From assembly GCA_038062955.1 (NCBI GenBank), contig JBBTWE010000001.1:320038-384037 (forward strand): a stretch of 64,000 nt of DNA, written 5' to 3'. The DNA is from Patescibacteria group bacterium (GTDB lineage Bacteria > Patescibacteriota > Minisyncoccia > Phycocordibacterales > BOKC01). A program made the position numbers and the translations under genes. Positions 3,855 to 50,037 of the stretch are shown one piece after another; positions within the stretch are counted from its first letter, which is position 1; every line of letters starts with the position of its first letter. The notes beneath the pieces are model-generated. The model was not told where the DNA came from, did no database searches, and saw only the letters and a program-made list of their open reading frames with translations.

Positions 3855-3861
3855 ATTCTTT

Positions 3862-5517
3862 TTAAATAAATAATTTAGCAAGACGAATTTCTTCGTAACC
3901 GAACCTTTCTCCTTTTCTGTTTAATTTATTGTAGATCGGCACAAGCTTCAATTCTTTTTCTTTGCTTTTAAGTTCTATACAAACATCTTGTATCTTTTTA
4001 AACCTCGCAGGCTCGGGTTTTAGATAAGAAATATCCAAAGTTTTATCAAATTTCCAAAGTTCTTCTATATGATTTAAAATCGTACCATTAGTTAAGCCTC
4101 GTTCTTTCGCAATAAAATGAACCGGCATTTGGAGTTTGATAAAATCCTTAGTCACTTCGAAAGTCGAAATCTTTTTAGTTTTTTTCTTACCCCGAAGCGC
4201 TTTTGGTGAAATCTTTTCTAAATATTTTTCTATATTTTTCTGCAAATCCTGCTGGTGGACAGACTCAATATCCTCGCTTAATTTTTCTGACTTTTCGAGT
4301 AATGTTTGATCGAAATTTAAAACATCTTCGTTTACAGCAAGCGCCATTTCATTTAAACCGAGAAGGCTCAAACCGTCTATACTGCGAACTCGAGAAAGAG
4401 CAACGTAACCCATTCCCCTCTCAAAAGATTTGGAGAGATCAATCTCGGCGGCATCAAGCGTCATCCCCTGACTCTTATGAACTGTAATCGCCCAAGCAAG
4501 ACGAAGTGGCACTTGAGTAATTTCCGCCTTTCGTTTTCCTTCTTCTTCGATCACCCACTCCATGGGGCTCGCTGTGATTATTTTACCAGAGAGTGTACGG
4601 ACCACTGGCCCCGCATCATCAAAACGTATAACTTTACCCAACGTACCATTCACGAAACCTTGTTCATAATTATTTTTCACAAACATCACCTGCGCGCCAA
4701 TTTTTAGATTCAATTTTTCAGGCGCCAAACAACTTTTTTTCAAAACCTCCACCAAATGTTCCGATCCACGTGCTTCCATCTCAAAAAGTCTTCCTTCTCC
4801 ATCTACCCTCTCAAGCTCTACCTGGTTTATTTGGTCTACGTCTGCGTTGTGAGTGTAAAGTCTTGTTGGTTTAAGATCACCTTTTAATTTCTTGTTCAGG
4901 CGTGAGTGGAGATGCGCGATGGTCTCTTCGGATACATTATTTTGTCTAATATCATTTAAAATTTTAATAGAAACATCATCAAACTGACGATGCTGTTCAT
5001 CGAGGTAGCAAACTTTAACATTCATCTCTCGCCAAGAATCAGATTTGTAAACGAAATGCGCGTCTTGTTCACCCATTCGACTTACTGGCGGCAACTGGAA
5101 AAAATCGCCGCATAAAACTACTTGAATTCCACCAAATGGCAGACTATTTCTTTTGAAGCTTTTTAAAATTTGATTGATGAGATCCAAGCGGAAATGATGG
5201 AGCATGGAGACTTCATCAATAATAAGAACCTTAACCCGTTCCATTCTTTTCCAAAGATACGGTTTTTGCTCCATCAAATCCAAATCACGCGCCGTGAGCC
5301 TATCGCGAATTCCAAGCCCTGACCAAGAATGAATAGTAACTCCGTTCATATGAGTCGCGGCAATTCCAGTTGAAGCAGTGATACCAGTTTCAACTTCGTT
5401 TTCTTTGAGATACTCAATAAACTGATTCAAAAGATATGTCTTTCCACTCCCAGCCCTGCCGGTTAAAAAAACATTATGCCCGAGTTTGAGAATTTGTAAG
5501 GCTTGTTTCTGTTTCAT
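3862..5517 (-). CDS. Pif1/RecD-family ATP-dependent DNA helicase with a C-terminal extra domain of about 150 aa.
   Basis: Walker A (GRAGSGKTYLL), Walker B (LIIDEVSM), LCGDFFQLPPV and a UvrD_C-like VHKSQGMTLD segment are present. Confidence 0.8.
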   Translation of the reverse strand: MKQKQALQILKLGHNVFLTGRAGSGKTYLLNQFIEYLKENEVETGITASTGIAATHMNGVTIHSWSGLGIRDRLTARDLDLMEQKPYLWKRMERVKVLIIDEVSMLHHFRLDLINQILKSFKRNSLPFGGIQVVLCGDFFQLPPVSRMGEQDAHFVYKSDSWREMNVKVCYLDEQHRQFDDVSIKILNDIRQNNVSEETIAHLHSRLNKKLKGDLKPTRLYTHNADVDQINQVELERVDGEGRLFEMEARGSEHLVEVLKKSCLAPEKLNLKIGAQVMFVKNNYEQGFVNGTLGKVIRFDDAGPVVRTLSGKIITASPMEWVIEEEGKRKAEITQVPLRLAWAITVHKSQGMTLDAAEIDLSKSFERGMGYVALSRVRSIDGLSLLGLNEMALAVNEDVLNFDQTLLEKSEKLSEDIESVHQQDLQKNIEKYLEKISPKALRGKKKTKKISTFEVTKDFIKLQMPVHFIAKERGLTNGTILNHIEELWKFDKTLDISYLKPEPARFKKIQDVCIELKSKEKELKLVPIYNKLNRKGERFGYEEIRLAKLFI

Positions 5518-5529
5518 AAATCAATATGG

Positions 5530-5700
5530 GACAGTTAGTATTTAGTATATTAACACTAACAGAATTTTCAATTTACAATTACCAATTTTCAATGAATTAT
5601 CAATGTTTCAATTTTCAATTGATAATTGTCTCTCTTTATCTCGCGGAGCGAGAGAGTTTGGGGCTTGATTGATAATTGGTTATTGATAATTGATAATTTT
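5530..5700. repeat. Iteron-like short direct repeats (caattttcaat and attgataattg units, several copies each) plus a small hairpin (ctcgc-gga-gcgag) in the helicase intergenic/promoter region.
   Basis: Seen directly in the sequence. Confidence 0.4.
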
Positions 5701-5708
5701 CTTTAACT

Positions 5709-7787
5709 CTATTCTATCTTATACTCAAACGTACCTTCCTGGGCTTCTGATAAAAATCGGCTAGGGAAACTGAAATACTGATCGAAGCTCATCGAGAAAG
5801 ATGGCATCGTAATAAATAAATTATATTTTGCTCTAGTGCAAGCAACATAAAAAAGACGTCTCTCTTCTTCAAGTTCCAACACTTTACGCACAGCTCTATG
5901 TGAAGGCAAAAGTCCATCAAGAGAGTGGACTACAAAAACCGTTCCCCATTCAAGACCTTTGGCGGAATGGATTGTTGAAAGAGTGACATAACCATTTTCC
6001 CTTTCATCAAATTGCACTTCTCCATCATGAGCTTCGTTAGGGGGGTCAAGAGAGAAATCATTTAGGAAAGTGCTAACATTTCCGTAAGTGGCAGCCATTT
6101 TCTTTAATGAATGCAAGTCGTTCTTCCTGATTTCTGAATCTTCTTCAGTTTGATCAAGAAAAGGAAAATAATAATCAAATATTAAATCAAACTTGTTCTC
6201 TATGTCGTCACCCCCTCTTATACTTTCTATAAGCAGGAAGAGTTTTGAGATATCATTCCAATATTTTTTGTTGCCAAACTGTTTTTTCAAATCAACGCCT
6301 TCGGTAATCGTTTCGATTATTCGAAAAAGCGTTTTCTCACCAACACCTTCAACCATGTTTAAAAGCCGAGTCCAAGCTGGAGAATCTTTGTAATTTTCAG
6401 AAGCTCGTAAGAAACTAAGCAAATCTTTAACATGTTTTCGTTCTATAAACTTAATACCGCCCACAGTTATAAAAGGTATTCTTCTGGTTAATAGTTCTTT
6501 TTGGACGAAGTTGCTTTGCCATGATGACCTATAAAGCACGGCAATCTCACTTAATTTTTTATCCTGTTCGTAGAGTTCTTGAATTTTGTTTGCAATAAAC
6601 TTGGCTTCCATTTCTTCATCGTAAAACTTCAAAGCTTGAGGTTTGAGACCGCCTGTCTTTTCAGTATAAAGATTCTTGGAATATCCCATGAGTGCATTGT
6701 TTATGACACTGTTCGTAAATTTTAATATTTCTTCTGTACTACGATAATTTCTTTCCACTTTCACCACTTTTCCATCAGGAAAATCTTTCGAGAAAGACAA
6801 AATATTTTCAAAATTAGCGCCTCTGAAAGCATAAATGCTTTGCGCATCGTCCCCCACAACAGTTATGTTTTTACTTTGAGCACTCAAGAGTTTTAATATT
6901 TCTCTCTGAACCTTGTTTGTATCTTGATATTCATCAACTAAAAAATATTTGTATTGATCATGGATTCTCTGTCTGAATTTTTCATTATTTTTGAGTTTTT
7001 CTTTAAAAATCTCCAAGATATCATCATAATCAAAAAGATTGGCTCGTCTTTTATAACTTTGGAATTTTTCGTTAATCTGTTTGATGTCAGACACATAATC
7101 CAAAAGTTTTGGATGCTCTTCGGCAATAATTGTCGGGATATCAAAACCTTTATTCCTCGAGGAAGATATTATTTCTTGAAGCTGATTTTTATTCGGGAAC
7201 AGAGACTTTATTGGATTTTTTTTAAGATTTAAAGAATTTTTTACCAAACCTATAATATCGGCTGAATCTGCGGTATCTATTATGGAAAAAGTTGGATCAA
7301 TTTCAGCATATGCGTGAAATTGACGAAGCAACCTTGAAGCAAAAGAATGGAAAGTGCCTCCAGATATTTTTTTTACTTCATCGCTCAAATTTAACTTTTT
7401 TACACGATCCAACATCTCCTTGGCCGCTTTCTTGGTAAAAGTTAAAAGAGCGATAGAAGACGGTGGGACTTTTTTTTCAATTAAATAACACACTTTGTGG
7501 ACTATCACTCTGGTTTTGCCGCTACCAGCTCCAGCAATCACAAGCATCGGCCCTTCCGTCGAAACAACCGCGCTTAGTTGTTCTTGATTTAATAATTTTG
7601 CATATGGTATTGATAAACCATCATCTTTAAAATCAGTAATTTTTTCTTTGCTTTCCTTGGCCCTTTTTTCCACAGACTTAATGTTTGTTTTTATAAGTTC
7701 AAGAAGGCTCTCGGGAATTCCCCCTTTTGGATAATCAAAATTATATTTAGATGGAAGATTTGGAGTTTCGCGATCGAGTAATCCCAT
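5709..7787 (-). CDS. uvrD: UvrD/PcrA/Rep-family DNA helicase
   Basis: Helicase motif I (AGAGSGKT) lies in an N-terminal region typical of the UvrD family. Length is 692 aa. Confidence 0.88.
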   Translation of the reverse strand: MGLLDRETPNLPSKYNFDYPKGGIPESLLELIKTNIKSVEKRAKESKEKITDFKDDGLSIPYAKLLNQEQLSAVVSTEGPMLVIAGAGSGKTRVIVHKVCYLIEKKVPPSSIALLTFTKKAAKEMLDRVKKLNLSDEVKKISGGTFHSFASRLLRQFHAYAEIDPTFSIIDTADSADIIGLVKNSLNLKKNPIKSLFPNKNQLQEIISSSRNKGFDIPTIIAEEHPKLLDYVSDIKQINEKFQSYKRRANLFDYDDILEIFKEKLKNNEKFRQRIHDQYKYFLVDEYQDTNKVQREILKLLSAQSKNITVVGDDAQSIYAFRGANFENILSFSKDFPDGKVVKVERNYRSTEEILKFTNSVINNALMGYSKNLYTEKTGGLKPQALKFYDEEMEAKFIANKIQELYEQDKKLSEIAVLYRSSWQSNFVQKELLTRRIPFITVGGIKFIERKHVKDLLSFLRASENYKDSPAWTRLLNMVEGVGEKTLFRIIETITEGVDLKKQFGNKKYWNDISKLFLLIESIRGGDDIENKFDLIFDYYFPFLDQTEEDSEIRKNDLHSLKKMAATYGNVSTFLNDFSLDPPNEAHDGEVQFDERENGYVTLSTIHSAKGLEWGTVFVVHSLDGLLPSHRAVRKVLELEEERRLFYVACTRAKYNLFITMPSFSMSFDQYFSFPSRFLSEAQEGTFEYKIE

Positions 7788-7964: not shown

Positions 7965-8480
7965 CTACTTGATTTCTATTATCTTATATTTAACCGAACC
8001 TTGTGGAGTGTTGAAAGAAAAAATATCACCTTTCTTTTTTCTCAAAATGGCTTGCCCAAATGGAGATTTGTTTGAAACTTTATTTTTACTTATATCAGCT
8101 TCTTCGGAACCAACGATTGTGAAAGTTTGCGGACCATTCCCTTTTTCTTTTTCTACTGTAACCACAGAGCTTACCGCAACTTCTTCGCTGTTATGAGCTC
8201 CTGTTATTTTTGCTGATTTGAGAAGGATCTCAAGTCTTGCAATTCTATCTTCAACGTTAGCCTGATCTCCACGAGCTTCCTGATATTCAGCGTTTTCTGA
8301 TAAATCACCAAGGGAACGAGCGTATTCCAGATGCTCGGCAATTTCTTTCCTTTTAGTTTTTTTGAGATGCTCTAACTCTTTTGTTAATTCACTAAATTTT
8401 TCTTTGGTTAAGTATTCTGTCTCATTCATAAATATATAACTTCCATATTTGGCCAATTTTGTAGTAAAAACTTGTCTCAA
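7965..8480 (-). CDS. greA: Transcription elongation factor GreA
   Basis: The coiled-coil N-domain plus FKBP-like C-domain and the LSENAEY motif are present. Confidence 0.9.
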   Translation of the reverse strand: MRQVFTTKLAKYGSYIFMNETEYLTKEKFSELTKELEHLKKTKRKEIAEHLEYARSLGDLSENAEYQEARGDQANVEDRIARLEILLKSAKITGAHNSEEVAVSSVVTVEKEKGNGPQTFTIVGSEEADISKNKVSNKSPFGQAILRKKKGDIFSFNTPQGSVKYKIIEIK

Positions 8481-8586
8481 ATCTGAAAGTTCTAAATTTC
8501 TATAGTAAATATTATTATAGTAATAAATAAATTGATTTTGAAATATTATACACCAAAACGTTAAAAGTCAATTCTAAATTTTAGAT

Positions 8587-8626
8587 AAAAAAAGCCCGCA
8601 GCGTTGGATCGTGGACAACGCTGCGG
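8587..8626 (-). terminator. Intrinsic terminator ending the minus-strand transcript of GC-rich island 1 (stem ccgcagcgttg/caacgctgcgg followed by a U-run).
   Basis: Hairpin followed by aaaaaaa on the plus strand, which reads as a U-tract on the minus-strand RNA. Confidence 0.6.
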
Positions 8627-9306
8627 ACCGAGGAACCTCTCGAGGTGCTAGACTTGTACGATTGGGGTCAAGGGTTACCAATCGGCACTCATTCGAGGAC
8701 TCCTCTCACACAGAACAGGGAATAAAGGGTGTTCAACCCTTTGATCCGTCTTCGCTCGCGGATCATGAGAATGCCGTCCACAGGTGTCGACAATGATCCT
8801 GTCGACTCATTCTCGCGATGCCGCTCGCTAGCCGGAATAAAAGCCGAGTCCTCAATCCATTCTCATGTGCGCCAGAACTTCTTCCTGTGAAGTCGTTGCC
8901 TACCATTCCACAGGTTGAGGAGAGCAAACAGACGAGGACTCGGATGTTCTTATTGAATGAAAGTGGTCCTTCCGAAGGGAAGCGACTCCAAAATGGCGGT
9001 ACTGGGGATTTCCCCCGGAAGGACAGTGTTCGGTGCTGTGCTGTATGTGAGAGAAAAAGAGCGAATCTGGGGAGTATTATAGATATCAGAGACCAAAAGT
9101 CAATGATTATAGCTGCCTGCCGGCAGGTATAAAAAAGGGGCCCCCATCTGCCGGTCAGAACAGAAGGGGGCCCACGAAACTTGATCCCGAGACCATATTA
9201 TGGAAAGGGCGGTTAGGGAGGGGGGTACTGGTCTCCATCACACAGCCACGGGATCTTCACCAAGAGCAGTCTGTTGAGTATTGTATACCTTAAAAAATAA
9301 AAGTCA
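8595..9306 (-). ncRNA. GC-rich island 1. This is a roughly 700-nt highly structured region with no ORF of 60 aa or longer and no SD on the transcribed (minus) strand. It is a candidate large structured ncRNA or a decayed cassette.
   Basis: The GC content is far above the flanks. Many long-range perfect stems are present (GGTCCTTCCG/CGGAAGGAC, GGGCCCCC/GGGGGCCC, GATCCCGAGACCA/TGGTCT..CGGGATC). It is bounded by the mrdA terminator and by its own terminator. It does not match RNase P, tmRNA or SRP signatures. Confidence 0.35.
8721..8844 (+). repeat. Modular GC-rich repeat, copy A. It consists of module 1 (aaagggtgttcaaccctttgatccgtcttcgctcgcggatcatgagaat), module 2 (ccgtccacaggtgtcgacaatgatcctgtcgac) and module 3 (cattctcgcgatgccgctcgctagccggaataaa).
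   Basis: It matches the copies at 13643..13768 (outer modules inverted, inner module in the same orientation) and 15036..15122 (lacking module 2). Confidence 0.7.
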
Positions 9307-9383
9307 ACCCCGTAGTGAATTTTGGCATAGTTTTCAACGTGTTTAGACCGAAGTCTAAACAATGCCAAAATCTACTACGGGGT
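9307..9383 (+). repeat. Conserved hairpin element with a 22-bp stem, copy 1. The left arm is ACCCCGTAGTGAATTTTGGCAT, the loop is 33 nt and the right arm is ATGCCAAAATCTACTACGGGGT.
   Basis: The arm sequences are identical to the copies at 17739..17803 and 30420..30486. As plus-strand RNA, 21 of 22 positions pair (including one G-U). Confidence 0.8.
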
Positions 9384-9389
9384 CAAGTA

Positions 9390-9426
9390 CAAAAATGGCC
9401 TGCAACGTCACACGACGTCGCAGGCC
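9390..9426 (-). terminator. Intrinsic terminator of the mre-mrdA operon (ggcctgcaacg..cgtcgcaggcc plus a U-run).
   Basis: The hairpin plus T-tract on the minus strand lies immediately 3' of mrdA. Confidence 0.55.
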
Positions 9427-9615
9427 AGGTCTCGAACAGCCCGAGACCACAAAATGTCCTTCTACCATGGTGATCACGAATCAGGAGGAGGAAGACCACC
9501 ACAGGAGGACAGAGCTGGGTACAGAAGAACGAACCTCTGATTATTATTCTAAACAATTGTTGAGAAAAGTCAAACCCCAAATCAGGTATTAGGGAAAAAT
9601 ACACAGGTACAGAGC

Positions 9616-27892: not shown

Positions 27893-28041
27893 TATGAATT
27901 TTTAATTCTTTTTGATGGATTTGGCGGTAAAAGAATTTTCAATTTCTCAATGTTCAAACAATTAACTGATTTTTTCATTGATAATTGAGAATTAAATACT
28001 ATTTTGGTATTCGAATTTCAGATTTTACAGGATTGAAGATA

Positions 28042-28059
28042 TATAGCATATATGCTATA
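28042..28059. promoter_or_regulatory. Perfect 18-bp palindrome TATAGCATATATGCTATA, 30 bp upstream of the HTH-murA start. It is a candidate operator for the fused XRE HTH domain.
   Basis: Seen directly in the sequence. Confidence 0.45.
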
Positions 28060-28088
28060 CTACTTACTTAACATATAAACTCAAATCC

Positions 28089-29600
28089 ATGGCAACAGAT
28101 TCTTCATCAATCGGTAAACTAATCCAAGAACTTCGTGAAGCGCAAAATATTACTCAAGAACAATTTGCCAAGAAACTTGGCACAACTCAAAGCGCTGTCG
28201 CCCGCATTGAAAGCGGCGAACAAAATCTTTCAACGGAAATGATTTCTAAAATTAGCCGTGCACTCAATAAAGAAATCGTAAGCCTTGGCACTGGCGCTTT
28301 GAATATTCAAATTGAAGGTGGTACAAAACTCTCCGGTGAAGTTACAACCAAAACTTCCAAAAACGGAGCCATGGGACTTCTTTCCGCTTCTCTACTAAAC
28401 AAAAACAAAACCACTTTAAAAAACATTCCAAAAATAGAAGAAGTTTTTAGGATGATTGAAGTTTTCCAAAGCATCGGTGTTTCTGTTAAGTGGGATGGTA
28501 ATGACTTGGAAATAAAACCGCCAAAAGAAATTTCTCTCGAGAATATCAATAAAACATCGGCCGAAAGAACCAGAAGCATCATCATGTTGATTGGTCCACT
28601 TGTGCATTACCTTAAAAAATTCAAACTTCCCCAAGCAGGAGGTTGCAAACTCGGCTCCCGCACAGTCAAACCTCATTTTTTTGCCTTGGAAAAACTTGGC
28701 GTAAATATTGTTACTAAATCAACATACTACGAGGTAAGCGCACCGGAACTTCATCCAAATGAAATTGTTCTTTATGAATCTGGGGACACCGTAACAGAAA
28801 ATACGATCATCGCGGCCGCACGCATTCCCGGCAAAACGACAATTAAATTCGCTTCAGCCAATTACATGGGTCAGGAAGTTTGTTTTTTCCTGCAAAAACT
28901 TGGAGTAGAAATCGAAGGTATCGGCACGACCACCCTCGTAATTCACGGTAAAGAAAATATTGATACGCCAGTCACTTACTACTTGAGCGAAGACCCAATC
29001 GAATCAATGTTCTTTCTAGCTGTCGCCGCCACTACCAATTCGAGTATCACAATCAAACGCTGTCCGATTGACTTTCTCGAGCTCGAGCTTTTGAAACTCG
29101 AAAAAATGGGTTTCAAATATAAAATTCTGAAAAATTACAAAGCTCTAAATGAAAAAACAAATTTAGTTGATATAAAAACCAGCGCCTCAAAGCTTGTAGC
29201 GCTTGAAGAAAAAATAGAATCCCGTCCATATCCGGGACTTAACATCGACAACCTTCCTTTCTTTGCAGTGATCGCAACTCAAGCCAAAGGCACCACTTTC
29301 ATCCACGACTGGGTTTATGAAAAAAGAGCGATTCATTATAAAGAGCTCGATAAGTTGGGCGCAGAAACTTTACTTGCTGATCCTCATCGAATTTATATTA
29401 CCGGCCCCACACGCCTTAAAGCGGCTGAAGTAATATGCCCTCCAGCTCTTCGTCCTGCAGTAATTATTCTTATAGGTATGCTCGCGGCCGAAGGAACATC
29501 GGTCCTCCGAAATATTTACAGCATAAATCGTGGTTACGAAGATTTAATAAAACGTCTAAACGACCTCGGCGCTAAGATCAAAATCTTAAGAGACTTTTAG
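28089..29600 (+). CDS. murA: UDP-N-acetylglucosamine 1-carboxyvinyltransferase (MurA) with an N-terminal XRE-family HTH domain of about 65 aa
   Basis: The HTH segment is QEQFAKKLGTTQSAVARIESGEQN. The MurA core contains GEVTTKTSKNGAMGLLSASLL, the active-site loop AGGCKLGSRTV and the C-terminal NRGYEDLIKRLNDLGAKI. Confidence 0.85.
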   Translation: MATDSSSIGKLIQELREAQNITQEQFAKKLGTTQSAVARIESGEQNLSTEMISKISRALNKEIVSLGTGALNIQIEGGTKLSGEVTTKTSKNGAMGLLSASLLNKNKTTLKNIPKIEEVFRMIEVFQSIGVSVKWDGNDLEIKPPKEISLENINKTSAERTRSIIMLIGPLVHYLKKFKLPQAGGCKLGSRTVKPHFFALEKLGVNIVTKSTYYEVSAPELHPNEIVLYESGDTVTENTIIAAARIPGKTTIKFASANYMGQEVCFFLQKLGVEIEGIGTTTLVIHGKENIDTPVTYYLSEDPIESMFFLAVAATTNSSITIKRCPIDFLELELLKLEKMGFKYKILKNYKALNEKTNLVDIKTSASKLVALEEKIESRPYPGLNIDNLPFFAVIATQAKGTTFIHDWVYEKRAIHYKELDKLGAETLLADPHRIYITGPTRLKAAEVICPPALRPAVIILIGMLAAEGTSVLRNIYSINRGYEDLIKRLNDLGAKIKILRDF

Positions 29601-29650
29601 TATAAAAAAAGAGCCCCTGCAGAAACGTTCCTGCAAGGGACTCCGAGACG
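29601..29650. terminator. Bidirectional intrinsic terminator between the convergent murA and island-3 ORFs.
   Basis: gagcccctgcag..ctgcaagggactc is flanked by an A-run on one side and a T-run on the other. Confidence 0.5.
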
Positions 29651-29651
29651 A

Positions 29652-30077
29652 TCAGCTTCTGGCGCGTTCTCTTTCGAATGCCCAGTTCACCTTCGGCACT
29701 GCCGCACGAAAGAAGTCGTCGATCTTGACCTCAAAGTCAACGCCAACATCGTCGTAACCAGCTGGTGCAAGCTTGCGGATCAGTGGTCTTGCAACCTCCA
29801 GTTGAGATGTGCCAGCTGGTGCCACCCACACTTCACCCTCGCGAGTGACGATCGCGTCCACACAGACCCGAGCATCATCATCTTGATGATCTTGAAGAGT
29901 GAGAACCGCCTCGCATGAATGGCCGAGAAGATCCCCGAGCTGACTACCAACCCAGAAAGCATCCCCGACAGGACGATGGGGATAGAGTCCTGTGATGTTC
30001 ACGAAACCGACATCGCGCAGCTTACGCTGCATTCTACCCGAAAGTGTCATAGAAGAACTACCTTTAGTCCGAAACAC
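29652..30077 (-). CDS. Hypothetical protein, the cargo of GC-rich island 3. The likely start is the internal ATG at 30050 (aaagg SD).
   Basis: The ORF is GC-rich. It has its own promoter (TTGACA-16-TATACT) and terminator. Confidence 0.5.
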   Translation of the reverse strand: MFRTKGSSSMTLSGRMQRKLRDVGFVNITGLYPHRPVGDAFWVGSQLGDLLGHSCEAVLTLQDHQDDDARVCVDAIVTREGEVWVAPAGTSQLEVARPLIRKLAPAGYDDVGVDFEVKIDDFFRAAVPKVNWAFERERARS

Positions 30078-30117
30078 ATGCTCGGGATGAGCAAGCTCTT
30101 ACGGACTGTCTGCAATA

Positions 30118-30145
30118 AGTATACATATTTTATCTATTTTGTCAA
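30118..30145 (-). promoter_or_regulatory. Consensus sigma70 promoter TTGACA-16-TATACT for the island-3 ORF.
   Basis: The minus strand reads ttgacaaaatagataaaatatgtatact. Confidence 0.55.
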
Positions 30146-30170
30146 ACGAAAATTCGACTTGATTTTGAGT

Positions 30171-30199
30171 TTGGTGCACAAACTGACTTGTGGTATATT
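30171..30199 (+). promoter_or_regulatory. Divergent plus-strand promoter (TTGGTG-17-TGg-TATATT, extended -10) driving the island-3 small transcript.
   Basis: ttggtgcacaaactgacttgtggtatatt. Confidence 0.45.
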
Positions 30200-30205
30200 T
30201 TTGCA

Positions 30206-30420
30206 AGAAGCAGGTCGTCTAACGTAGCACAACGCCACAGGACGATCTGTGCCGAACAACGTTCGCAGGAGGACACATGCGCAAGATGAAGCTCTCCAGC
30301 TGATACGACAAGAAGTCGGCCCGTTGTGGAGAACCTTTGAGCCGAAAGAGAACTGTAGGCTCGATGGAACTTCTAACACTCACCCGTTGTGTCCCCCAAA
30401 GGACATGACGGGTGTTTTTT
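30206..30420 (+). ncRNA. Small GC-rich plus-strand transcript of island 3. It contains an SD plus an 8-codon ORF (AGGAGG-N5-ATG MRKMKLSS) and ends at an intrinsic terminator.
   Basis: The terminator is cacccgttgtgtcc..ggacatgacgggtg plus TTTTTT and lies immediately before hairpin copy 3. Confidence 0.4.
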
Positions 30421-30486
30421 ACCCCGTAGTGAATTTTGGCATCGTTGCCTTGCAACAGAGTTGCTATGCCAAAATCTACTACGGGG
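30420..30486 (+). repeat. Conserved 22-bp-stem hairpin element, copy 3, followed by T8.
   Basis: accccgtagtgaattttggcat-cgttgccttgcaacagagttgct-atgccaaaatctactacggggt. Confidence 0.8.
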
Positions 30487-30534
30487 TTTTTTTTGAATCT
30501 ATCACTCTACCTTTTCTAGTGGTACTATAGTGTC

Positions 30535-40678: not shown

Positions 40679-43666
40679 ATGAGCAAAATATTATTAGAAA
40701 AACTTGTTGCGAAATATGACTCGGATAGAGAGCATTATTTGTCTTCTCATTACAATGAGACGCAATTAAGAGCCGATTTTCTTGACCCTCTGTTTGACCT
40801 ACTGGGATGGGATATAAGAAACACCGAAGGAAAACCAACAAACGAAAGAGAAGTTTTGTTGGAAGAAGGTTTAAAAGAAGATGTTGCATCTAATACAAAG
40901 AAACCTGATTACACCTTCAGGTTGTTCTCCGAAAGAAAATTTTATCTTGAAGCAAAGAAACCGAACGTCAAAATTGAAACAGACACAGAACCAGCAAAGC
41001 AAATTAGACGCTACGGGTTTACTGGAAAATTAAAGATTTCAGTCTTATCTAATTTTGAATATTTAGCTATTTACGATTGTTCTGAAAAGGTAGAAGAATC
41101 AGACAGTGTCTCAAAATCAAGAATAAAGATTTACCACTACAAGGAGTACGCAGAAGCTTTTGAGGAAATTCAAAAGGAACTTGGGCGTGAAAGTGTATAC
41201 AGTGGGGCTTTTGATAAAACTTGGGAGCATATTGAGGAAAGACTAAAACTGTTTAGCGTTGACAGTCTGTTTCTTAATCAAATTAACCAATGGAGACTGG
41301 TCTTGGGAAAAGAAATCTTTAGTCTTAGAAATGACTTAAATGAGGCACAGCTAAACGATATCGTCCAAAGATATATCAACAGCATCATCTTTTTAAGGGT
41401 TCTAGAGGACAGAAACCTTGAAGATTATAAAACCCTATTGGGTATTGCCAGTGCTGATAATTTCAAAGATTTGGTCGAAAAATTCAATCAAGCCGACAAG
41501 AAATACAACTCTGGTCTTTTCAATCATGGTTTAACGGAAGAAATTATAACCAATAATAGCTCGGCTTTTTGGTTGATTATCAAACAACTTTATTATCCTG
41601 AAAGCACTTATTCGTTCGCTGTCTTTGCCTCCGATATTTTAGGAAATATATATGAAATATTTTTGGCTCAATACCTCGCTATTAAAGACGGTGAGGTTAC
41701 TTTAGAGAAAAAGCCTGACCATATTGGTAGAGATGTTGTAACAACGCCAACTTACATTATTCAAGACATTCTTCGGCAGACTGTTCGCGAGTACTGTAAT
41801 CAGAAAACAGACAAAGAAATTCTAGCTTCTAAATTTGCGGATATTGCTTGTGGTTCAGGAGCCTTTCTGCTTGAAACTTATCAATTGGTAAGTGACATTT
41901 TGATTGACTACTATATCGCGAATTCCCCAGAGGTTCTTATTCAAACAGGAGTAAGTACCTACAAACTTCCATTTGAGCTAAAAAGAAAAGTTCTCGAATC
42001 TTGTTTATTTGGAATCGATAAAGATTTTAATGCTGTTGAAGCATGTAAATTCGGACTCCTACTAAAACTTCTTGAAGATGAAAACAATTCAAGTATCCCT
42101 ACCCCAGCATTACCAGAAATATCAAACGTAATACATTTTGGTAACAGCTTGGTTGAAAGTTCTGAAACAACAGAAGCAAGTCGTTCAACAATTAATCCAT
42201 TTGATTTTAAAGACATTAAGTTCGATGTGGTAGTTGGAAACCCGCCATACATGACTACCGAAGACATGAAGGAACTCACTCCTTTAGAACTTCCTTTATA
42301 CAAAGAGAAATTCTCAACTGCATACAAACAGTTTGATAAGTATTTCTTATTCGTTGAAATGGCTTATCGTCTTCTCGATGAGAATGGATATTTAGGATAT
42401 ATCGTACCGAGTAAGTTTACAAAGGTGGGTTCAGCGAAGATGCTTCGTGAATTACTAAAGAGCAATAAAGCTGTAAGTAAACTTATTTCCTTTGGCGCGA
42501 ACCAGATTTTTGAAGATAAAACTACGTATACTTGTTTGCTAATTGTTCAGAAGAAAGAACACCCTTCTTTTGAGTTTTTGGAAGTTAGAGATTTATTAGA
42601 TTGGAAAACTCGAAATATTAAGCAAGAAGAGTTTGAATCAGTTGCATTTGATGAATTGGAGGAAGATTGGGTTCTTGTTGCAGGAAAACTCAAAGAGGTT
42701 TATGAGAGAATAAACTCACAGAGCATTACTCTTTCTGAACTAATTGGTGATGAAAATATTTACAATGGCATTCAAACCAGTGCCAATGACATATATATCA
42801 ATACGCCCAAGAAAGAAGATAAGCGATACTTCTATTTTCAGAAGGATGGCAAAGACTGGACAATAGAGAAAAAGCTTACAAAGCCATACTTTAAGACATC
42901 GGGTGGTGTAGATAATTTAAATACTTATCGCTCATTGAAAGCAAATTCCTTTGTTATTTACCCATACGAAAAAACTCCAACGGGTGAAATTCAATTTATC
43001 GAAATTAGCCGATTGATGACCGAGTTTCCAAAAGCCTATGAATATCTATCTGCATATAAAGATAAGTTAAGCGCATCTACAAGAGATATTAAGCCCGAAC
43101 CTACTACCCCAGATGAGTGGTACAGATACGGTAGACATCAATCTTTAGACAAGTGTGACGTACCAGCAAAAATAATTGTAGGCGTTCTCTCTCAAGGTAA
43201 TAAATATGCAATTGATTACTCTGGCGCTTTGATTTCTTCTGGTGGTACCGCAGGTTACTGCATGATAACTCTCCCGTCTGATTGTGAATATTCGATTTAT
43301 TACATTCAAGCACTTCTAAATTCAAAATATCTTGAATGGTACTCCGCCCTATATGGTGAAGTATTCAGAGGTGGATACGTAGCTAGAGGAACAAAGGTTC
43401 TTAAAAAACTCCCGATACGAGTGATTGATTTTACAAACCCTAGTGAGAAAGAACTTCACGACGAGATATCTCATATAGAAGAGGGTTTAATTAAGACTCA
43501 AGAAAAAATTGACCAAAATTTAAGCAATGAGCGAGAGTTAGTACCATTGCAAAGAGAGTTCGATTCTATGAAAAAGGAATTAGAAATTTCCTTAAAGAAA
43601 CTATATGGACTCGGAGAAAGCGACCAAAAGATTCCATTGATATCTCAAATATATGAAACTGATTAA
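40679..43666 (+). CDS. Type IIG restriction-modification enzyme of the Eco57I/MmeI type. It has an N-terminal PD-ExK nuclease (D..EAK), a central gamma-class N6-adenine MTase and a C-terminal TRD.
   Basis: The nuclease motif is PDYTFRLFSERKFYLEAKK. The MTase motifs are DIACGSGAFL (motif I) and VVGNPPYM (motif IV). Length is 995 aa (Eco57I is 997 aa). Confidence 0.85.
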   Translation: MSKILLEKLVAKYDSDREHYLSSHYNETQLRADFLDPLFDLLGWDIRNTEGKPTNEREVLLEEGLKEDVASNTKKPDYTFRLFSERKFYLEAKKPNVKIETDTEPAKQIRRYGFTGKLKISVLSNFEYLAIYDCSEKVEESDSVSKSRIKIYHYKEYAEAFEEIQKELGRESVYSGAFDKTWEHIEERLKLFSVDSLFLNQINQWRLVLGKEIFSLRNDLNEAQLNDIVQRYINSIIFLRVLEDRNLEDYKTLLGIASADNFKDLVEKFNQADKKYNSGLFNHGLTEEIITNNSSAFWLIIKQLYYPESTYSFAVFASDILGNIYEIFLAQYLAIKDGEVTLEKKPDHIGRDVVTTPTYIIQDILRQTVREYCNQKTDKEILASKFADIACGSGAFLLETYQLVSDILIDYYIANSPEVLIQTGVSTYKLPFELKRKVLESCLFGIDKDFNAVEACKFGLLLKLLEDENNSSIPTPALPEISNVIHFGNSLVESSETTEASRSTINPFDFKDIKFDVVVGNPPYMTTEDMKELTPLELPLYKEKFSTAYKQFDKYFLFVEMAYRLLDENGYLGYIVPSKFTKVGSAKMLRELLKSNKAVSKLISFGANQIFEDKTTYTCLLIVQKKEHPSFEFLEVRDLLDWKTRNIKQEEFESVAFDELEEDWVLVAGKLKEVYERINSQSITLSELIGDENIYNGIQTSANDIYINTPKKEDKRYFYFQKDGKDWTIEKKLTKPYFKTSGGVDNLNTYRSLKANSFVIYPYEKTPTGEIQFIEISRLMTEFPKAYEYLSAYKDKLSASTRDIKPEPTTPDEWYRYGRHQSLDKCDVPAKIIVGVLSQGNKYAIDYSGALISSGGTAGYCMITLPSDCEYSIYYIQALLNSKYLEWYSALYGEVFRGGYVARGTKVLKKLPIRVIDFTNPSEKELHDEISHIEEGLIKTQEKIDQNLSNERELVPLQREFDSMKKELEISLKKLYGLGESDQKIPLISQIYETD

Positions 43667-45257
43667 AAGTGCCACAAAAGAAAAATTGCGGGGCGGTTTC
43701 TATACCCCAAACAGTATTGTCTCATTTATTTTGAAATGGGGTTTTAATGGTAATCCTAAAATGGATATATTGGAGCCAAGTTGTGGAGATGGCGTATTTC
43801 TTGAGGAAATCAGAAATGGTGCATACAAATACAACTCAATAACAGGTGTAGAACTTGATAAAAAGGAAGCTGAAAAATCTCGGAACCTTAATGTAAAAAA
43901 AACCACAATAGTTAATTCTGACTTCCATAAGTATTGCTTACAAACAGATGATAAGTTTGATTTTATTGTCGGAAACCCACCTTACATTCGGTTCCAATAC
44001 TTCGATAAAAAACAGCAACAATTTGCATCTAAAATTTTTGATAAGGCTGGCTTAAAATATTCAAAGCTTACAAACGCTTGGGTTTCTTTCGTCGTTGGCT
44101 CAAGTCTGCTTCTAAAAGAGAATGGGAAACTGGGCTTTGTTTTACCTGCTGAAATATTACAGGTTTCGTACGCACAACCATTGAGAGAATTTCTATCCCA
44201 CTTCTACAACAAAATAACAATCGTTTCTTTTAAGAAGCTAGTCTTTCCTGATATACAACAAGAAGTGGTTTTGCTTTTATGCGAAAAGAATAAAACAGAC
44301 TCTCATTTGATTGAACATATTGAGCTGACAGATGCAGACGAACTATCTAAAACTGATATTTATAAATTTAAAACACCGCAAAAGAAAATAGATTTTAAAA
44401 CCAACAAATGGACATTCTATTTCTTAAACCAAAAAGAGATAGATTTTCTACTAAAATTAAAAGAGAAGAAGACCATCCCAACACTGGGTGAGCATACCAA
44501 AGTAGAGGTTGGTATTACTACTGGAGCGAATCCATTTTTCACTGTGCCTCTTTCCACCGTGAAGTCTTATGAAATGGAAGACTTTGCTTATCCAATGGTT
44601 GGGAGAAGCGTGCAGGTTCCCAGCGTGATTTTCACTAAAAAGGACTGGAGTGAGAATAATAAAAAAGATTCTAGGTCTCATCTGTTGGTATTTCCAAAAA
44701 TGGCTGATTTAAAAAATAGAACTGGTGCAAAGAAATATATTAAAAGTGGTGAATCCGAAAAACTACATGAAGGATATAAGAATAAAATACGAGACGAGTG
44801 GCAGATTGTCCCTTCATTAAGAATCTCCGATGCTCTCTTCATCCGTAGAAATAATCTTTACCCAAAGCTAATCATCAATAGCGCAAAGGCATATACCACT
44901 GACACTATGCATAGAGTAACCCTCAACAAGGGTGTGGACACCGAAGCTTTAGTAGCAAGTTATTACAACTCGCTTTCTTTAGCATTTGCAGAGATATCTG
45001 GTCGTAGTCATGGTGGCGGTGTTTTGGAACTCATGCCAAATGAAGCGGAAGAAATTCTTGTTCCATATCATAAAAATAACACTAAATTACTACCCATTAT
45101 TGATGAAATGATGCGTGCTAAAAAAAACATCTCGGAGATACTAAAAGTAACAAATCAAAAGATTTTAAAAGATAATTACGGTTTTTCTACGGCAGATATC
45201 GAATTGGTTGATGGTATTCGAAAGAAGTTATCTGAAAGAAGGTTAAATAGAAGTTAA
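43653..45257 (+). CDS. Companion N6-adenine DNA methyltransferase (M.Eco57I-like) with a C-terminal TRD
   Basis: The motifs EPSCGDGVFL and IVGNPPYI are present. It overlaps the R-M gene by 14 nt. Length is 534 aa. Confidence 0.85.
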   Translation: MKLIKSATKEKLRGGFYTPNSIVSFILKWGFNGNPKMDILEPSCGDGVFLEEIRNGAYKYNSITGVELDKKEAEKSRNLNVKKTTIVNSDFHKYCLQTDDKFDFIVGNPPYIRFQYFDKKQQQFASKIFDKAGLKYSKLTNAWVSFVVGSSLLLKENGKLGFVLPAEILQVSYAQPLREFLSHFYNKITIVSFKKLVFPDIQQEVVLLLCEKNKTDSHLIEHIELTDADELSKTDIYKFKTPQKKIDFKTNKWTFYFLNQKEIDFLLKLKEKKTIPTLGEHTKVEVGITTGANPFFTVPLSTVKSYEMEDFAYPMVGRSVQVPSVIFTKKDWSENNKKDSRSHLLVFPKMADLKNRTGAKKYIKSGESEKLHEGYKNKIRDEWQIVPSLRISDALFIRRNNLYPKLIINSAKAYTTDTMHRVTLNKGVDTEALVASYYNSLSLAFAEISGRSHGGGVLELMPNEAEEILVPYHKNNTKLLPIIDEMMRAKKNISEILKVTNQKILKDNYGFSTADIELVDGIRKKLSERRLNRS

Positions 45258-45655: not shown

Positions 45656-45980
45656 AGCAGTATAGGTTTCCCATTTTTTCGGATTTAACATCCTCAAAAA
45701 TATGGGAGAACCTTTTCGAATCCTACCTCGCAAGCAAAATTATTTGCTTGCTCGCGAGTAGGAATTTCTTTCATTACATGAACAGTATACCTTTTGGCTA
45801 AAATTTTCATCCTCGACAAACTTGGATTCAATTTTAGGCTCAAAAGCTTTTCGAATCCTAACGAAGGTGCTATTCAAAGCACCTTCTCCCGCAGAAGCCA
45901 CAAATGACAAAATCCACCGAAAAGGTGGATTTGTGTCAGTGGCTCCGCGGGTAGGATTCGAACCTACGACCAATCGCTTA

Positions 45981-46535
45981 CATTTGTTCCAAAGTTGCCT
46001 TTGGCATGGACTATATCATCATCCTTCATCGGCTGTTTGCAGATGGATGGGATGTGAGGCGCTTCGACTGAATTTTTCAGGCTACTCTCTTTCGAGATAG
46101 TCTCTGAACCTTCCTGCTGATTAGCAGGCTTGGCTGCTGATTGCCCACGTGGGGTTTCCAGCAATTCACCTCATTTTTCATCCTAAATTCCTTTAGGAAG
46201 CTGCGTGATGCCGTCATGTATTTCCATGTGACAATTTGCACAAACGAGTACGCACTTCTTAATTTCCTCTTCGATTTTGGCCCAGGAACGTGTTATGCCT
46301 CCAGAAGCAAGATCGAATTTCTTTGTAGATGGATCGATATGGTGGAAACTAAGAGATCGTTGGCATTTTTTGTAACCACATATAAAACATTTACTGCCTT
46401 TCGTTGCTCTAGCCATTTCACGAAGTTTTCTTCTTCTTCGTTTTACAGCTTCTCGCATGTACTCGGCACGGTCGGCATAGGTTCTTTTTTCTTTCCTGGT
46501 ATACATTAATAAAGTATACCACAGAACCTTCTGAC
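45981..46535 (-). mobile_element. Group I intron (within the anticodon loop of the tRNA) carrying an HNH homing-endonuclease ORF.
   Basis: P7 strands GACUA / UAGUC (cagAGACTAtc ... atATAGTCc), GNRA-capped hairpins (tctcGAAAgaga, ccaaagGCAActttgg), a terminal omega-G and the HNH ORF are all present. Confidence 0.7.
46183..46506 (-). CDS. HNH homing endonuclease (intron-encoded)
   Basis: CFICGYKKC...SFHHIDP...N...CANCHMEIH is the C-x2-C/HH/N/C-x2-C-H HNH signature. Confidence 0.8.
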   Translation of the reverse strand: MYTRKEKRTYADRAEYMREAVKRRRRKLREMARATKGSKCFICGYKKCQRSLSFHHIDPSTKKFDLASGGITRSWAKIEEEIKKCVLVCANCHMEIHDGITQLPKGI

Positions 46536-47771: not shown

Positions 47772-49127
47772 ATGCGTCAAAACATCTTGTCGAAAAATAG
47801 GAAGGGGTTCTCACAAATTATTTTATTAGGCATCGTGGCTATACTTGTTTTAGTTGGGGCCGGCGGATTTTTGTTATTGCCTGAAAAAGAAAAGTCTATC
47901 CCCAATATTCCAATACAACCCTCCAATCCCCAAACACAGTCAGAATTAAAACTAACAGAAAACATCCAGCCAGCATCGCAAAATGTAGAAATCGTAAAAA
48001 ATGTTGATCGGGTGCCTAATACTGACAGTAGTGCGGTACAGATAGGCAAGAGATTTTCCAATGGAGCATGTGATGGGAGCGGGAAAAAGCTTATGACCAC
48101 TGCCCCAATGAATCCCGAGGATGTACAGATGATTTTGCCATACGGCACGATGGTGGGCGCTCATGTGATACCAACATCGCACCAGTATCTAGAACCATGG
48201 GATAGAGCTCTAGGTCGGGATAAATATGAAGTGCGAGCGGCAATGGACGCAACCCTCTATTCGATTAGCAGAAGAGCCCAAAACGTCGAATCGGGTGAAG
48301 CGCGGCCAGAAGAATTTCAACTTTGGTTTGCCATCACATGTACGCACTTTTATTATTATGATTTGATGACGAGTCTCTCTCCAGAGCTCCAGAAGATTTT
48401 TGATGAAGAAAAGCGTCAAGATGATTATGCTTATGTACATATTCCAGTGAAAGCTGGACAAGTGGTGGGAAAGATAGGAGCGCAGACATTGGATTATGGT
48501 GTTTGGGATACGGAGCTACCGCCCACTACAGGCATCCTGGTGCCCGAGCACTATCAGTGGGACAGCTTTCGTGTTTATCTTGCTGACCCGCTTAACTACT
48601 ATACCGATGAGTTGAAAAAGATCATGCTGTCAAAATATGTCCGAACGGCCGAACCAATTTCGGGCAAAGTCGATTATGATATCGACGGAAAACTGATCGG
48701 TGGATGGTTTCTGGAAGGCACAGGGAATCTGACAGGAGGAAATTTCCAAAAGTATTGGGCTGGGCATCTGGCCATAGCGCCCGAATATCTCGATCCCAGT
48801 GTTTATTTGATTTCGGTTGGAGACTTCGCGGGTGAAGAGAAACAATTCTCGATACCCAGAAACGCTCCCGATCCAAAAAGTGTCGGGGTAGAGACGGGAC
48901 TAGTCAAATATGATCTGTTACCATGGCAATATTTGAAATCGGACGGAACGATTTGGGATTGGAAGAAATATGCAAAAGGATTGAAAATTGTGAATGGGCA
49001 TCAGAACTTTGGGTGCGTCGCTATCCAGATGATAGAGTCTCGCAAACTAAAATTTGAGGGCTTTAAAGGTAAAAGCTGTGCCAGTGTTAGCGGATTTACT
49101 AGCGCGGCTAAGATTTATGAACGCTAA
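47772..49127 (+). CDS. Hypothetical secreted/membrane-anchored protein (451 aa)
   Basis: An N-terminal TM/signal segment is present. No recognised domain. Confidence 0.5.
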   Translation: MRQNILSKNRKGFSQIILLGIVAILVLVGAGGFLLLPEKEKSIPNIPIQPSNPQTQSELKLTENIQPASQNVEIVKNVDRVPNTDSSAVQIGKRFSNGACDGSGKKLMTTAPMNPEDVQMILPYGTMVGAHVIPTSHQYLEPWDRALGRDKYEVRAAMDATLYSISRRAQNVESGEARPEEFQLWFAITCTHFYYYDLMTSLSPELQKIFDEEKRQDDYAYVHIPVKAGQVVGKIGAQTLDYGVWDTELPPTTGILVPEHYQWDSFRVYLADPLNYYTDELKKIMLSKYVRTAEPISGKVDYDIDGKLIGGWFLEGTGNLTGGNFQKYWAGHLAIAPEYLDPSVYLISVGDFAGEEKQFSIPRNAPDPKSVGVETGLVKYDLLPWQYLKSDGTIWDWKKYAKGLKIVNGHQNFGCVAIQMIESRKLKFEGFKGKSCASVSGFTSAAKIYER

Positions 49128-49218: not shown

Positions 49219-49262
49219 CTCCCTGCCTGCCGGCAGGCAGGCTACCCGCGGAGTCTACAAAC
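49219..49262. repeat. A 45-bp element, the right member of the inverted pair with 45611..45655.
   Basis: agagaaactccctgcctgccggcaggcaggctacccgcggag. Confidence 0.65.
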
Positions 49263-50037
49263 CGCGCCTCAACTTATTCCGATAGATGATAGAGACGAGC
49301 GCGAAGCTCAAGATAAGCAGAAGAAACCACGAACCGATTTTGCTCCACGAGACAAAATGCCAATTCTCGACTTGGCTCGGATAGAGCCAGACTCGGGTGA
49401 AAGTGTCAATATTTTCTGCTACCCATACAAAAAAGGAGGTCAAAAATACCGTCACTAAAAATGGCATACTTCGTTCTTTCCTATACACCTCAAAATGCAC
49501 CTTTGTTTTAAAAAATATAATAAATACGTATAGGAACAAAAAATATCTAATATCGTAAAAGAAATGATGTGTAAAGAAATTTACATATATAAGACCTGCG
49601 AGAATCCAGATGTGATAATAGGCCGGAAATCGCTCGTATGAAAGCTTAAGAAAAATAAAGGCTCGAGAGATGTAACTCCCAATCGCCGAATATAAAAAGC
49701 CTGTAAAAAGCGGTATTGTACCGATTGCAAATATTGCGCTTCCTACGCTTGGATAAGACCATGAACCAATAGCAGGGTTAGTCTTGAACAACTCCATGCC
49801 AGTTGCGAGTAGATGAAAAATAATAATAACGAGAAATTCTCTAGGACGTTCAAATCGGAATATGAGCGCACATAATTGAAAACCCACTGCGGCGAGAAAA
49901 ATAAAATCGTACCTGCTTATAATTGGAATGGTAAAAAACTCGGTGAGTAGAAATATTAAAAGCAGAAACAGGCCAAAGAAACTTGCCCGCAGACTAGCTA
50001 TAAAGAAATACCAAAGCTCAACAAATACAATATTCAT
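49255..50037 (-). CDS. Hypothetical polytopic membrane protein (260 aa)
   Basis: It has 6-8 predicted TM helices and is Phe/Tyr-rich. Confidence 0.5.
   Translation of the reverse strand: MNIVFVELWYFFIASLRASFFGLFLLLIFLLTEFFTIPIISRYDFIFLAAVGFQLCALIFRFERPREFLVIIIFHLLATGMELFKTNPAIGSWSYPSVGSAIFAIGTIPLFTGFLYSAIGSYISRAFIFLKLSYERFPAYYHIWILAGLIYVNFFTHHFFYDIRYFLFLYVFIIFFKTKVHFEVYRKERSMPFLVTVFLTSFFVWVAENIDTFTRVWLYPSQVENWHFVSWSKIGSWFLLLILSFALVSIIYRNKLRRGL

Follow-up and report, generated by a model that had tools for sequence, protein, structure and literature searches.

Why would an enzyme of cell wall synthesis carry a DNA-binding domain at its N-terminus? This question is raised by a gene in a 64,000-nucleotide stretch of DNA from a Patescibacteria group bacterium (contig JBBTWE010000001.1, positions 320,038 to 384,037 of the forward strand), which is referred to here in its full length as the window. 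The gene, located at 28089..29600 on the plus strand, is a single open reading frame (ORF) of 503 amino acids (aa). It encodes a helix-turn-helix (HTH) domain of the XRE/Cro-C1 type followed by MurA, the fosfomycin target that catalyzes the first committed step of peptidoglycan synthesis. A perfect 18-bp palindrome, TATAGCATATATGCTATA, lies in its promoter. We predict that the protein is a bifunctional enzyme-repressor, a so-called trigger enzyme, that autoregulates murA, with the HTH probably acting as a dimer on the palindrome; given the comparisons described below, we consider this the likely answer.

The reading frame at 28089..29600 is unbroken, and neither a stop codon nor a frameshift divides the HTH from MurA. 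The best 120 database matches, which are 72-100% identical, have both domains without exception (120/120). Therefore, a small HTH gene separated from murA by a frameshift or a missed stop is excluded, and the proposal of the sequence-only reading that an XRE-type HTH is fused to the N-terminus of MurA is borne out, including the peptide that it quoted, QEQFAKKLGTTQSAVARIESGEQN. An identical protein is on record (P0001) under the name UDP-N-acetylglucosamine 1-carboxyvinyltransferase [Patescibacteria group bacterium].

The HTH domain covers aa 12-63 (28122..28277, plus strand) and scores 64 bits with the Pfam model HTH_3, which has a cut-off of 23 (E = 1.3e-17). In the AlphaFold2 (AF2) model of the protein, which has a predicted local distance difference test (pLDDT) value of 89.5, the helices of the domain span residues 5-18, 23-30, 34-41 and 49-58, and the recognition helix, QSAVARIE (aa 34-41, 28188-28211, plus strand), is exposed. 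Eight residues of the domain (Q34, S35, A38, R39, E41, G43, Q45 and N46) do not vary among 81 homologues, and its closest relatives among solved sequences are XRE repressors and antitoxins, i.e., PezA, C.AhdI, C.BclI and other XRE regulators. A short linker (aa 59-70, 28263..28298, plus strand) is flexible, as indicated by its low pLDDT (about 54 across residues 61-70 and below 50 at residues 65-68). The MurA, or enolpyruvyl transferase, domain follows at aa 72-500 (28302..29588, plus strand) and was identified with the NCBIfam model NF006873, phmmer and Foldseek; the Pfam EPSP_synthase model matches aa 76-490 with 159 bits (E = 1.9e-46). An internal start that would yield a MurA without the HTH was considered and rejected, because residue 71 varies between L, I and F among the relatives and is not conserved.

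The fusion is widespread. The named sources among the best 120 matches are Patescibacteria (Paceibacterota, Parcubacteria, Taylorbacteria and Nomurabacteria), and a scan that used one genome per GTDB species found a relative in at least 573 species genomes. The locus comparisons described below use the best 80 loci of these at least 573 relatives; they come from Paceibacteria, Saccharimonadia and Doudna-, Gracili-, Peri-, Uhr-, Lipton- and Zambryskibacteria. HTH-MurA is fused in 73 of the 80, which answers the earlier question of whether related MurA orthologues also have the HTH, and the remaining seven begin directly with the MurA domain (MNFQIEGG...), at a point that coincides exactly with the end of the linker. 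In a tree of the MurA domains, the seven HTH-less orthologues lie dispersed between fused ones; therefore, the HTH was lost at least six times independently. On this evidence, the HTH-MurA fusion is a phylum-wide trait that is not peculiar to this genome. Databases label the proteins either as plain MurA or as 'helix-turn-helix domain-containing protein', and catalytically dead offshoots of the family, described below, are mislabelled as MurA.

As the sequence-only reading had claimed, a perfect 18-bp palindrome lies about 30 bp upstream of the gene: it occupies 28042..28059 and ends 29 nt ahead of the ATG. A consensus scan places a sigma-70-type promoter on the plus strand at 28033..28061 (9/12 matches), with a -35 element TTGAAG at 28033-38, a spacer of 17 nt, a TG ahead of the -10 at 28053-54 and a -10 element TATACT at 28056-61. 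The palindrome, our candidate operator, thus spans the promoter spacer plus the initial four bases of the -10, and its right arm is the extended -10 itself; the extended -10 portion that can be separated from the left half-site is TGCTATACT. The significance of the palindrome comes from its conservation in relatives and not from the window sequence alone. In the 64 kb of the window the 18-mer occurs once, even if three mismatches are allowed, and a relaxed TATANC-N6-GNTATA pattern is not found there beyond chance. The suggestion that the palindrome might define a wider regulon accordingly fared poorly: the window has no further site within three mismatches, nor did the sequence covered (the window and the related loci) yield a site ahead of any other gene. 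An RNA hairpin in the 5' leader was rejected as an explanation of the symmetry; the fold reaches only -6.7 kcal/mol (z = -1.9) and Rfam is empty at the palindrome, which would not be transcribed from the predicted promoter because the predicted -10 lies inside it. A second, unrelated perfect palindrome, the GC-rich 20-bp CCTGCCTGCCGGCAGGCAGG at 49222-49241, lies between the convergent ORFs 47772-49127 (plus strand) and 49255-50037 (minus strand) and is probably the stem of a bidirectional terminator.

The conservation was examined with the operator consensus TATA[G/T]CAYATRTG[C/A]TATA, a match being defined as agreement at 15 or more of the 18 positions, no more than 200 nt upstream of the gene. 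Seventy-two fused loci have upstream sequence that can be tested, and 60 of them have a match, where 0.1 would be expected. The related loci scanned total 723 kb, and the remaining 708 kb contain five matches of at least 15/18, the density from which the expected 0.1 follows; of the four examined, two lie within ORFs and two are weak 15/18 matches. Thus the palindrome, far from being absent from orthologous promoters, a possibility that the earlier reading had raised, is found in most of them. The 12 fused loci that have no match are all of the Saccharimonadia type (helix QSAVNRIE). In nearly all loci the right arm, extended by two bases, gives TGnTATA(A/C/T)T, with a TTG-type -35 just upstream, and the ATG is so close that the murA mRNA predicted from this promoter must be leaderless or nearly so in many of them.

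The palindrome does not depend on a particular neighbor. In the window the divergent gene is mreB, whose start is 196 bp distant. Among the 81 sources (the window and the 80 loci), 62 have a divergent upstream gene. The palindrome is kept next to divergent mreB, SHMT or murB genes and next to co-directional genes for a tRNA synthetase, an amylase, ThiI or a SET-domain protein. In L060 and L085, the fused gene shares a short intergenic region with a divergent murB or murA-murB; the site lies within this region and could control both directions there. Four loci (L033, L037, L040 and L043) have two operator-like sites about 56-62 bp apart upstream of HTH-murA, the distal one directly after a terminator hairpin; the paired sites may reflect cooperative binding or looping in Doudnabacteria-type lineages.

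The repeated loss of the HTH provides a natural control. None of the seven HTH-less orthologues (0/7) has the palindrome, with best scores of 11-14/18 (Fisher p = 1.7e-5). In the five examined closely (L023, L039, L045, L059 and L062), the TGnTATAnT extended -10-like element is kept and the left arm is gone; for example, L023 retains TATGCTATAGT beside a decayed left arm. Four of the five (L023, L039, L045 and L059) retain the divergent mreB; the promoter of the neighbor can therefore do without the left arm. As judged from these loci, retention of the left arm is confined to genes that have the HTH.

The HTH and the site also co-vary. In a set of 54 loci, residue 33, which immediately precedes the recognition helix, is T in 22 of the 22 loci that have at least one half-site TATAGC/GCTATA (G5/C14), and S in 31 of the 31 that have both half-sites TATATC/GATATA (T5/A14). 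The loci with TATCGC sites have V36 (QSV) in the helix (5/5). Positions 33 and 36 may correspond to Thr27 and Ser30 of the 434 repressor, which lie at the DNA interface; this alignment is a lead and not a test.

Further evidence comes from outside the Patescibacteria. Members of Nonomuraea (Actinomycetota), a cultured actinomycete genus, encode a fused protein that is 53% identical and belongs to a 246-member cluster. In Nonomuraea phyllanthi (CP045572, 5665057-5682586; region 7972-9530 of locus L081), the gene encodes a Saccharimonadia-type helix; it is preceded by a formyltransferase/ECH gene and followed by an integrase gene, in DNA of 70% GC. The AT-rich sequence AATCTCATATGTGAGATA ends 11 nt ahead of its GTG start and overlaps the end of the co-directional upstream gene. 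The type of the helix suggests horizontal transfer of a Patescibacteria-like gene together with its site. Presumably, the HTH-MurA is a second MurA paralogue in Nonomuraea.

The palindrome can also be used as the starting point. Metagenome contigs were searched for the exact 18-mer, and among the matches listed there were 122 sites on 120 contigs. A related XRE HTH gene (within 900 nt downstream, phmmer E ≤ 1e-3 against the query HTH) follows 73 of these 122 sites: seven encode HTH-MurA, 15 belong to two-gene toxin-antitoxin operons that consist of a Gp49-like toxin (RelE/ParE superfamily) and an XRE antitoxin, and 51 encode other XRE proteins, mostly of 93-101 aa, with which a toxin was not detected. 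Four further sites in this list are accompanied by a toxin gene alone. About 54 of 75 HTH matches have the helix motif T[TK]QS[AV][IV][AS]R[ILM]E, as in MurA, and in the toxin-antitoxin operons the palindrome lies over the -10 and is preceded by a TTGACA-type -35. The co-occurrence on these contigs shows that this HTH subfamily and this candidate operator belong together independently of MurA. Examples of toxin-antitoxin or small XRE contigs with the identical 18-bp palindrome are L099, L124, L132, L139, L149, L176 and L185, among others, and the operator of this Gp49-like toxin-antitoxin family appears to be undescribed in the literature searched.

Antitoxins of type II systems are generally known to repress their own operons at such palindromes. 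The XRE antitoxins of the Gp49/HigB-like operons are members of the same HTH subfamily (42-54% identity over about 50 aa) and have the identical palindrome over their own -10. HTH-MurA differs from them in that it has no toxin partner and in that an essential enzyme of 430 aa replaces the C-terminal segment that neutralizes the toxin. Neither a Gp49-like toxin ORF (best tblastn E = 0.14) nor a related HTH gene was found in the 64-kb window, and the protein falls below the cut-offs of the antitoxin models (TIGR03070, 39.9 versus 71.65 bits, as well as the HigA, HipB and PezA models); therefore, HTH-MurA is not an antitoxin. The HTH-plus-operator cassette was probably either captured from an autoregulated XRE antitoxin of Gp49/HigB-type modules or shares a common ancestor with it, and the origin that we propose is that such a cassette would have been joined in frame to murA.

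These observations together favor the enzyme-repressor, and the earlier suggestion of direct autoregulation gains support from the sites in 60 of 72 fused loci, the loss of the left half-site with the HTH, the co-variation, the Nonomuraea copy and the toxin-antitoxin pairs. In the simplest arrangement, HTH-MurA would bind the palindrome as a dimer, each half-site being contacted by one HTH. At high levels of MurA, the site would be occupied, RNA polymerase would be excluded at the -10 and transcription of murA would fall; murA, and with it the first committed step of the peptidoglycan pathway, would be under negative autoregulation. We infer the physical binding, repression over activation and the dimer stoichiometry from the comparison of loci.

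Several observations weigh against this reading. The conservation of the right arm is partly promoter conservation, because the right arm is the extended -10, and so the specific evidence is confined to the left arm and the symmetry. Taken by itself, the window could contain such a palindrome by chance: first-order Markov simulations of 64 kb with the composition of the window gave a mean of 0.47 perfect 18-bp palindromes per window, and at least one in 37%. Most of the Saccharimonadia-type loci have a looser TATAYC-N6-GRTATM with a variable center in the same place. The T33 and V36 clades are each essentially monophyletic, which reduces the co-variation to few independent events. Neither an HTH nor a toxin gene was detectable near 45 of the 122 listed metagenomic sites, and in vivo the site could also be bound by further XRE proteins that share this helix. 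Finally, MurA of the canonical type is usually regarded as monomeric, and the AF2 model is silent on dimerization.

Is the MurA part still an enzyme? One alternative is that the fused protein of the window is a dedicated regulator in which the MurA fold serves as a sensor only, the real MurA being encoded elsewhere. Some features of the protein would agree with such a role. It misses the cut-off of the equivalog model TIGR01072 (325.6 versus 392.7 bits), and Asp369 of the ATDLRA motif is lost, being replaced by Ala453 in the HMMER alignment or Pro452 in the MAFFT alignment, inside an invariant CPPALRP. The search for another murA covered the 64 kb of the window. However, no second MurA-like gene was found in these 64 kb, and the protein passes the cut-off of the MurA subfamily model NF006873 (326.4 bits versus 297) and matches MurA chains of the PDB with E = 1e-57 in phmmer; it belongs to a divergent MurA subfamily. 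With Foldseek it matches E. coli MurA (1UAE) with a TM score of 0.92 (target-normalized) and a root-mean-square deviation of 2.5 Å, and every MurA structure ranks ahead of NikO and AroA; none of the solved chains has an HTH.

The catalytic residues point in the same direction. Cys186 (codon 28644..28646, plus strand) is the equivalent of Cys115 of E. coli MurA, the catalytic residue targeted by fosfomycin; its motif AGGCKLGSR aligns with PGGCxIGxR of the solved MurA chains, and it is unvarying in the family. The equivalents of K22, N23, R91, C115, R120, D305, R331, R371 and R397 are K91, N92, R162, C186, R191, D387, R413, R455 and R481, in an E. coli numbering whose key positions were verified and agree with one another. 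These nine catalytic or ligand residues are all unvarying among the 81 homologues, and the window protein keeps nine of the 10 positions checked. In addition, the MurA domains of the HTH-less orthologues are 66-77% identical and four of these genes sit by a divergent mreB, as in the window; the existence of these orthologues indicates that the MurA domain works stand-alone. Compared with canonical MurA (E. coli 1UAE and Enterobacter cloacae 1NAW), the window protein has the common two-domain fold, the Cys115 loop and the other catalytic equivalents. It differs in the extra 70-aa N-terminal HTH, in an identity of about 30%, in CPPALRP in place of ATDLRA, in the segment around S162-G164 and in its score below the TIGR01072 cut-off. 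The MurA part of the fusion looks active from these comparisons, and we regard a dedicated regulator as very improbable in the window.

Dedicated regulators nevertheless seem to have arisen elsewhere in the family. Several representatives of 50% clusters have lost catalytic residues: these fused proteins are 34-48% identical, are without Cys115 and most of R91, R120 and R371, and have an intact recognition helix (P0141/L085, P0286, P0129, P0287, P0130, P0146/L083, P0149, P0175 and P0179/L084). The upstream site is retained in all three of the offshoot loci inspected (3/3). L085 (region 3558-6530) has TATAACATATATGCTATA directly ahead of the start, L084 (4965-6467) has a 16/18 site, and L083 (3685-6554) has a 17/18 site in front of an operon that encodes a NUDIX protein, an NTP_transferase (sugar nucleotidyltransferase) and, last, the HTH-MurA. 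In L085, the pseudoenzyme gene and an unfused murA, which has kept the catalytic Cys, are arranged back to back; murB comes after this murA, and there is a Mur ligase gene downstream. This offshoot type is rare, with only three close relatives found. Because the DNA-reading part persists when the enzyme decays, DNA binding would be a real function of the family. The equivalents of D305 and R331 are retained in most of the dead offshoots, which hints, speculatively, at modulation by a ligand. The dead offshoots (L083-L085, P0129, P0286 and others) resemble MocR/GabR, which combine an HTH with an aminotransferase fold, and the ROK repressors NagC/Mlc, which combine an HTH with a sugar-kinase fold. 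Unlike these, the window protein itself retains its catalytic residues. We know of no described sensor domain with a MurA fold, and none was found in the literature searched.

A second alternative is that the palindrome is promoter architecture only, i.e., an extended -10 and its mirror image that serves a back-to-back mreB promoter, and that the HTH does something else (e.g., contacts other proteins) or is vestigial. The TGnTATAnT of the right arm in almost every locus and the frequency of divergent upstream genes would agree with this explanation, and in L003, L018 and L085 the left arm with its flank does read as a good extended -10 on the opposite strand. However, a minus-strand promoter is not predicted at the palindrome in the window, and the four HTH-less loci described above lost the left arm yet kept the divergent mreB. 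Seven loci with a co-directional upstream gene (L022, L038, L044, L068, L069, L070 and L078) keep 18/18 sites, and the Nonomuraea site persists over the end of such a gene. Nor would promoter architecture account for HTH residues that co-vary with the site or for a recognition helix that is unvarying even in the pseudoenzyme offshoots. We therefore consider this explanation very improbable.

An equally slim chance is left to the last alternative, that HTH-MurA activates instead or that another XRE protein (e.g., an antitoxin with the same helix), and not MurA, is the main occupant of the site: free-standing XRE proteins with this helix and operator are common in metagenomes, and MerR-type activators also bind within promoter spacers, but the 17-nt spacer is already optimal and a site over the -10 is the usual geometry of repression, the window has neither a related HTH gene nor a Gp49 toxin gene, and a trans-acting regulator would not explain why the site was lost each time the fused HTH was lost.

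The enzyme-repressor that we favor would have several precedents. BirA (biotin ligase and bio repressor), PutA (a proline dehydrogenase with a ribbon-helix-helix domain) and NadR are trigger enzymes that combine an enzyme and a DNA-binding domain in one polypeptide. Like trigger enzymes, which act on operators in the promoters of their own genes or of pathway genes, HTH-MurA has its candidate operator in its own promoter; it differs from these three in having a cell-wall enzyme and an XRE/Cro-C1 HTH instead of a winged HTH or a ribbon-helix-helix domain. For BirA and PutA, a ligand or redox switch has been demonstrated, whereas a switch of HTH-MurA would be speculative. To our knowledge, the classical examples include no enzyme of cell-wall precursor synthesis. 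The known control of MurA consists mainly of proteolysis and phosphorylation-linked pathways in Firmicutes, and of feedback inhibition by UDP-MurNAc. For the concept of trigger enzymes, PMC6524683 cites Commichau & Stülke 2008, where it is defined. Literature searches, which included the palindrome sequence and had most subscription journals outside their coverage, did not find the fusion or the operator described.

One can speculate that occupancy of the MurA domain by substrates or product (UDP-GlcNAc, PEP or UDP-MurNAc) alters DNA binding. The large open/closed movement of the MurA domain on binding UDP-GlcNAc, PEP or UDP-MurNAc, its feedback ligand, would then set the geometry of the two HTHs on the operator, and transcription of murA (in some lineages also that of the divergent mreB, murB or murA-murB) would track the pool of peptidoglycan precursors. 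It is a tentative and rather doubtful extension of this idea that HTH-MurA might be a one-component metabolite sensor and serve the regulator-poor Patescibacteria as their main cell-wall homeostat, with the dead offshoots as pure sensor-regulators.

The surroundings of the gene and the rest of the window display some additional features. A GC-rich hairpin with an 11-bp stem lies 14 nt past the murA stop codon (29614..29639) and has a T-run on the minus strand only; it scores as the terminator of the convergent minus-strand ORF and probably ends murA transcription too. This ORF, the other neighbor of the gene (141 aa, 29652-30077, minus strand), has no match in Pfam, NCBIfam or PHROG and lies in an island of 45-56% GC (29600-30500, peak about 56%) between murA and priA, in surroundings of about 38% GC. 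On the minus strand at 45988-46271 (flanks about 45900-46360), Rfam identifies a group I intron with 78 bits; a sequence resembling the 3' half of a tRNA (GGTTCGAATCC...GCGGAGCCA) follows it, and a fragment of an HNH-like ORF (CANCHMEIHDG) precedes it. The arrangement resembles a tRNA gene interrupted by a group I intron with an encoded homing endonuclease. However, ARAGORN did not find a tRNA anywhere in the window, and trial splicing of the intron recovered none. Near this putative intron-containing tRNA gene, at 40679-45257 (plus strand), a 995-aa ORF is followed by a gene for a 534-aa N6-adenine methyltransferase of the Eco57I/MmeI type; the two are probably a restriction-modification module.

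If the prediction is correct, a cell-wall enzyme would join the short list of enzyme-repressor fusions, and a very large radiation with tiny genomes and few regulators would have placed a regulator inside an enzyme. A Patescibacteria-like gene and its cis-element would be documented in the actinomycete Nonomuraea, a suggestive finding, given that actinobacteria are the hosts on which Saccharibacteria live. The family would make visible a series that leads from an antitoxin-type HTH/operator cassette to an enzyme fusion and on to a pseudoenzyme regulator, with repeated reversions. It would also provide a protein-DNA pair that is well defined and easy to test (70 aa and 18 bp), although most of the source organisms are unculturable.

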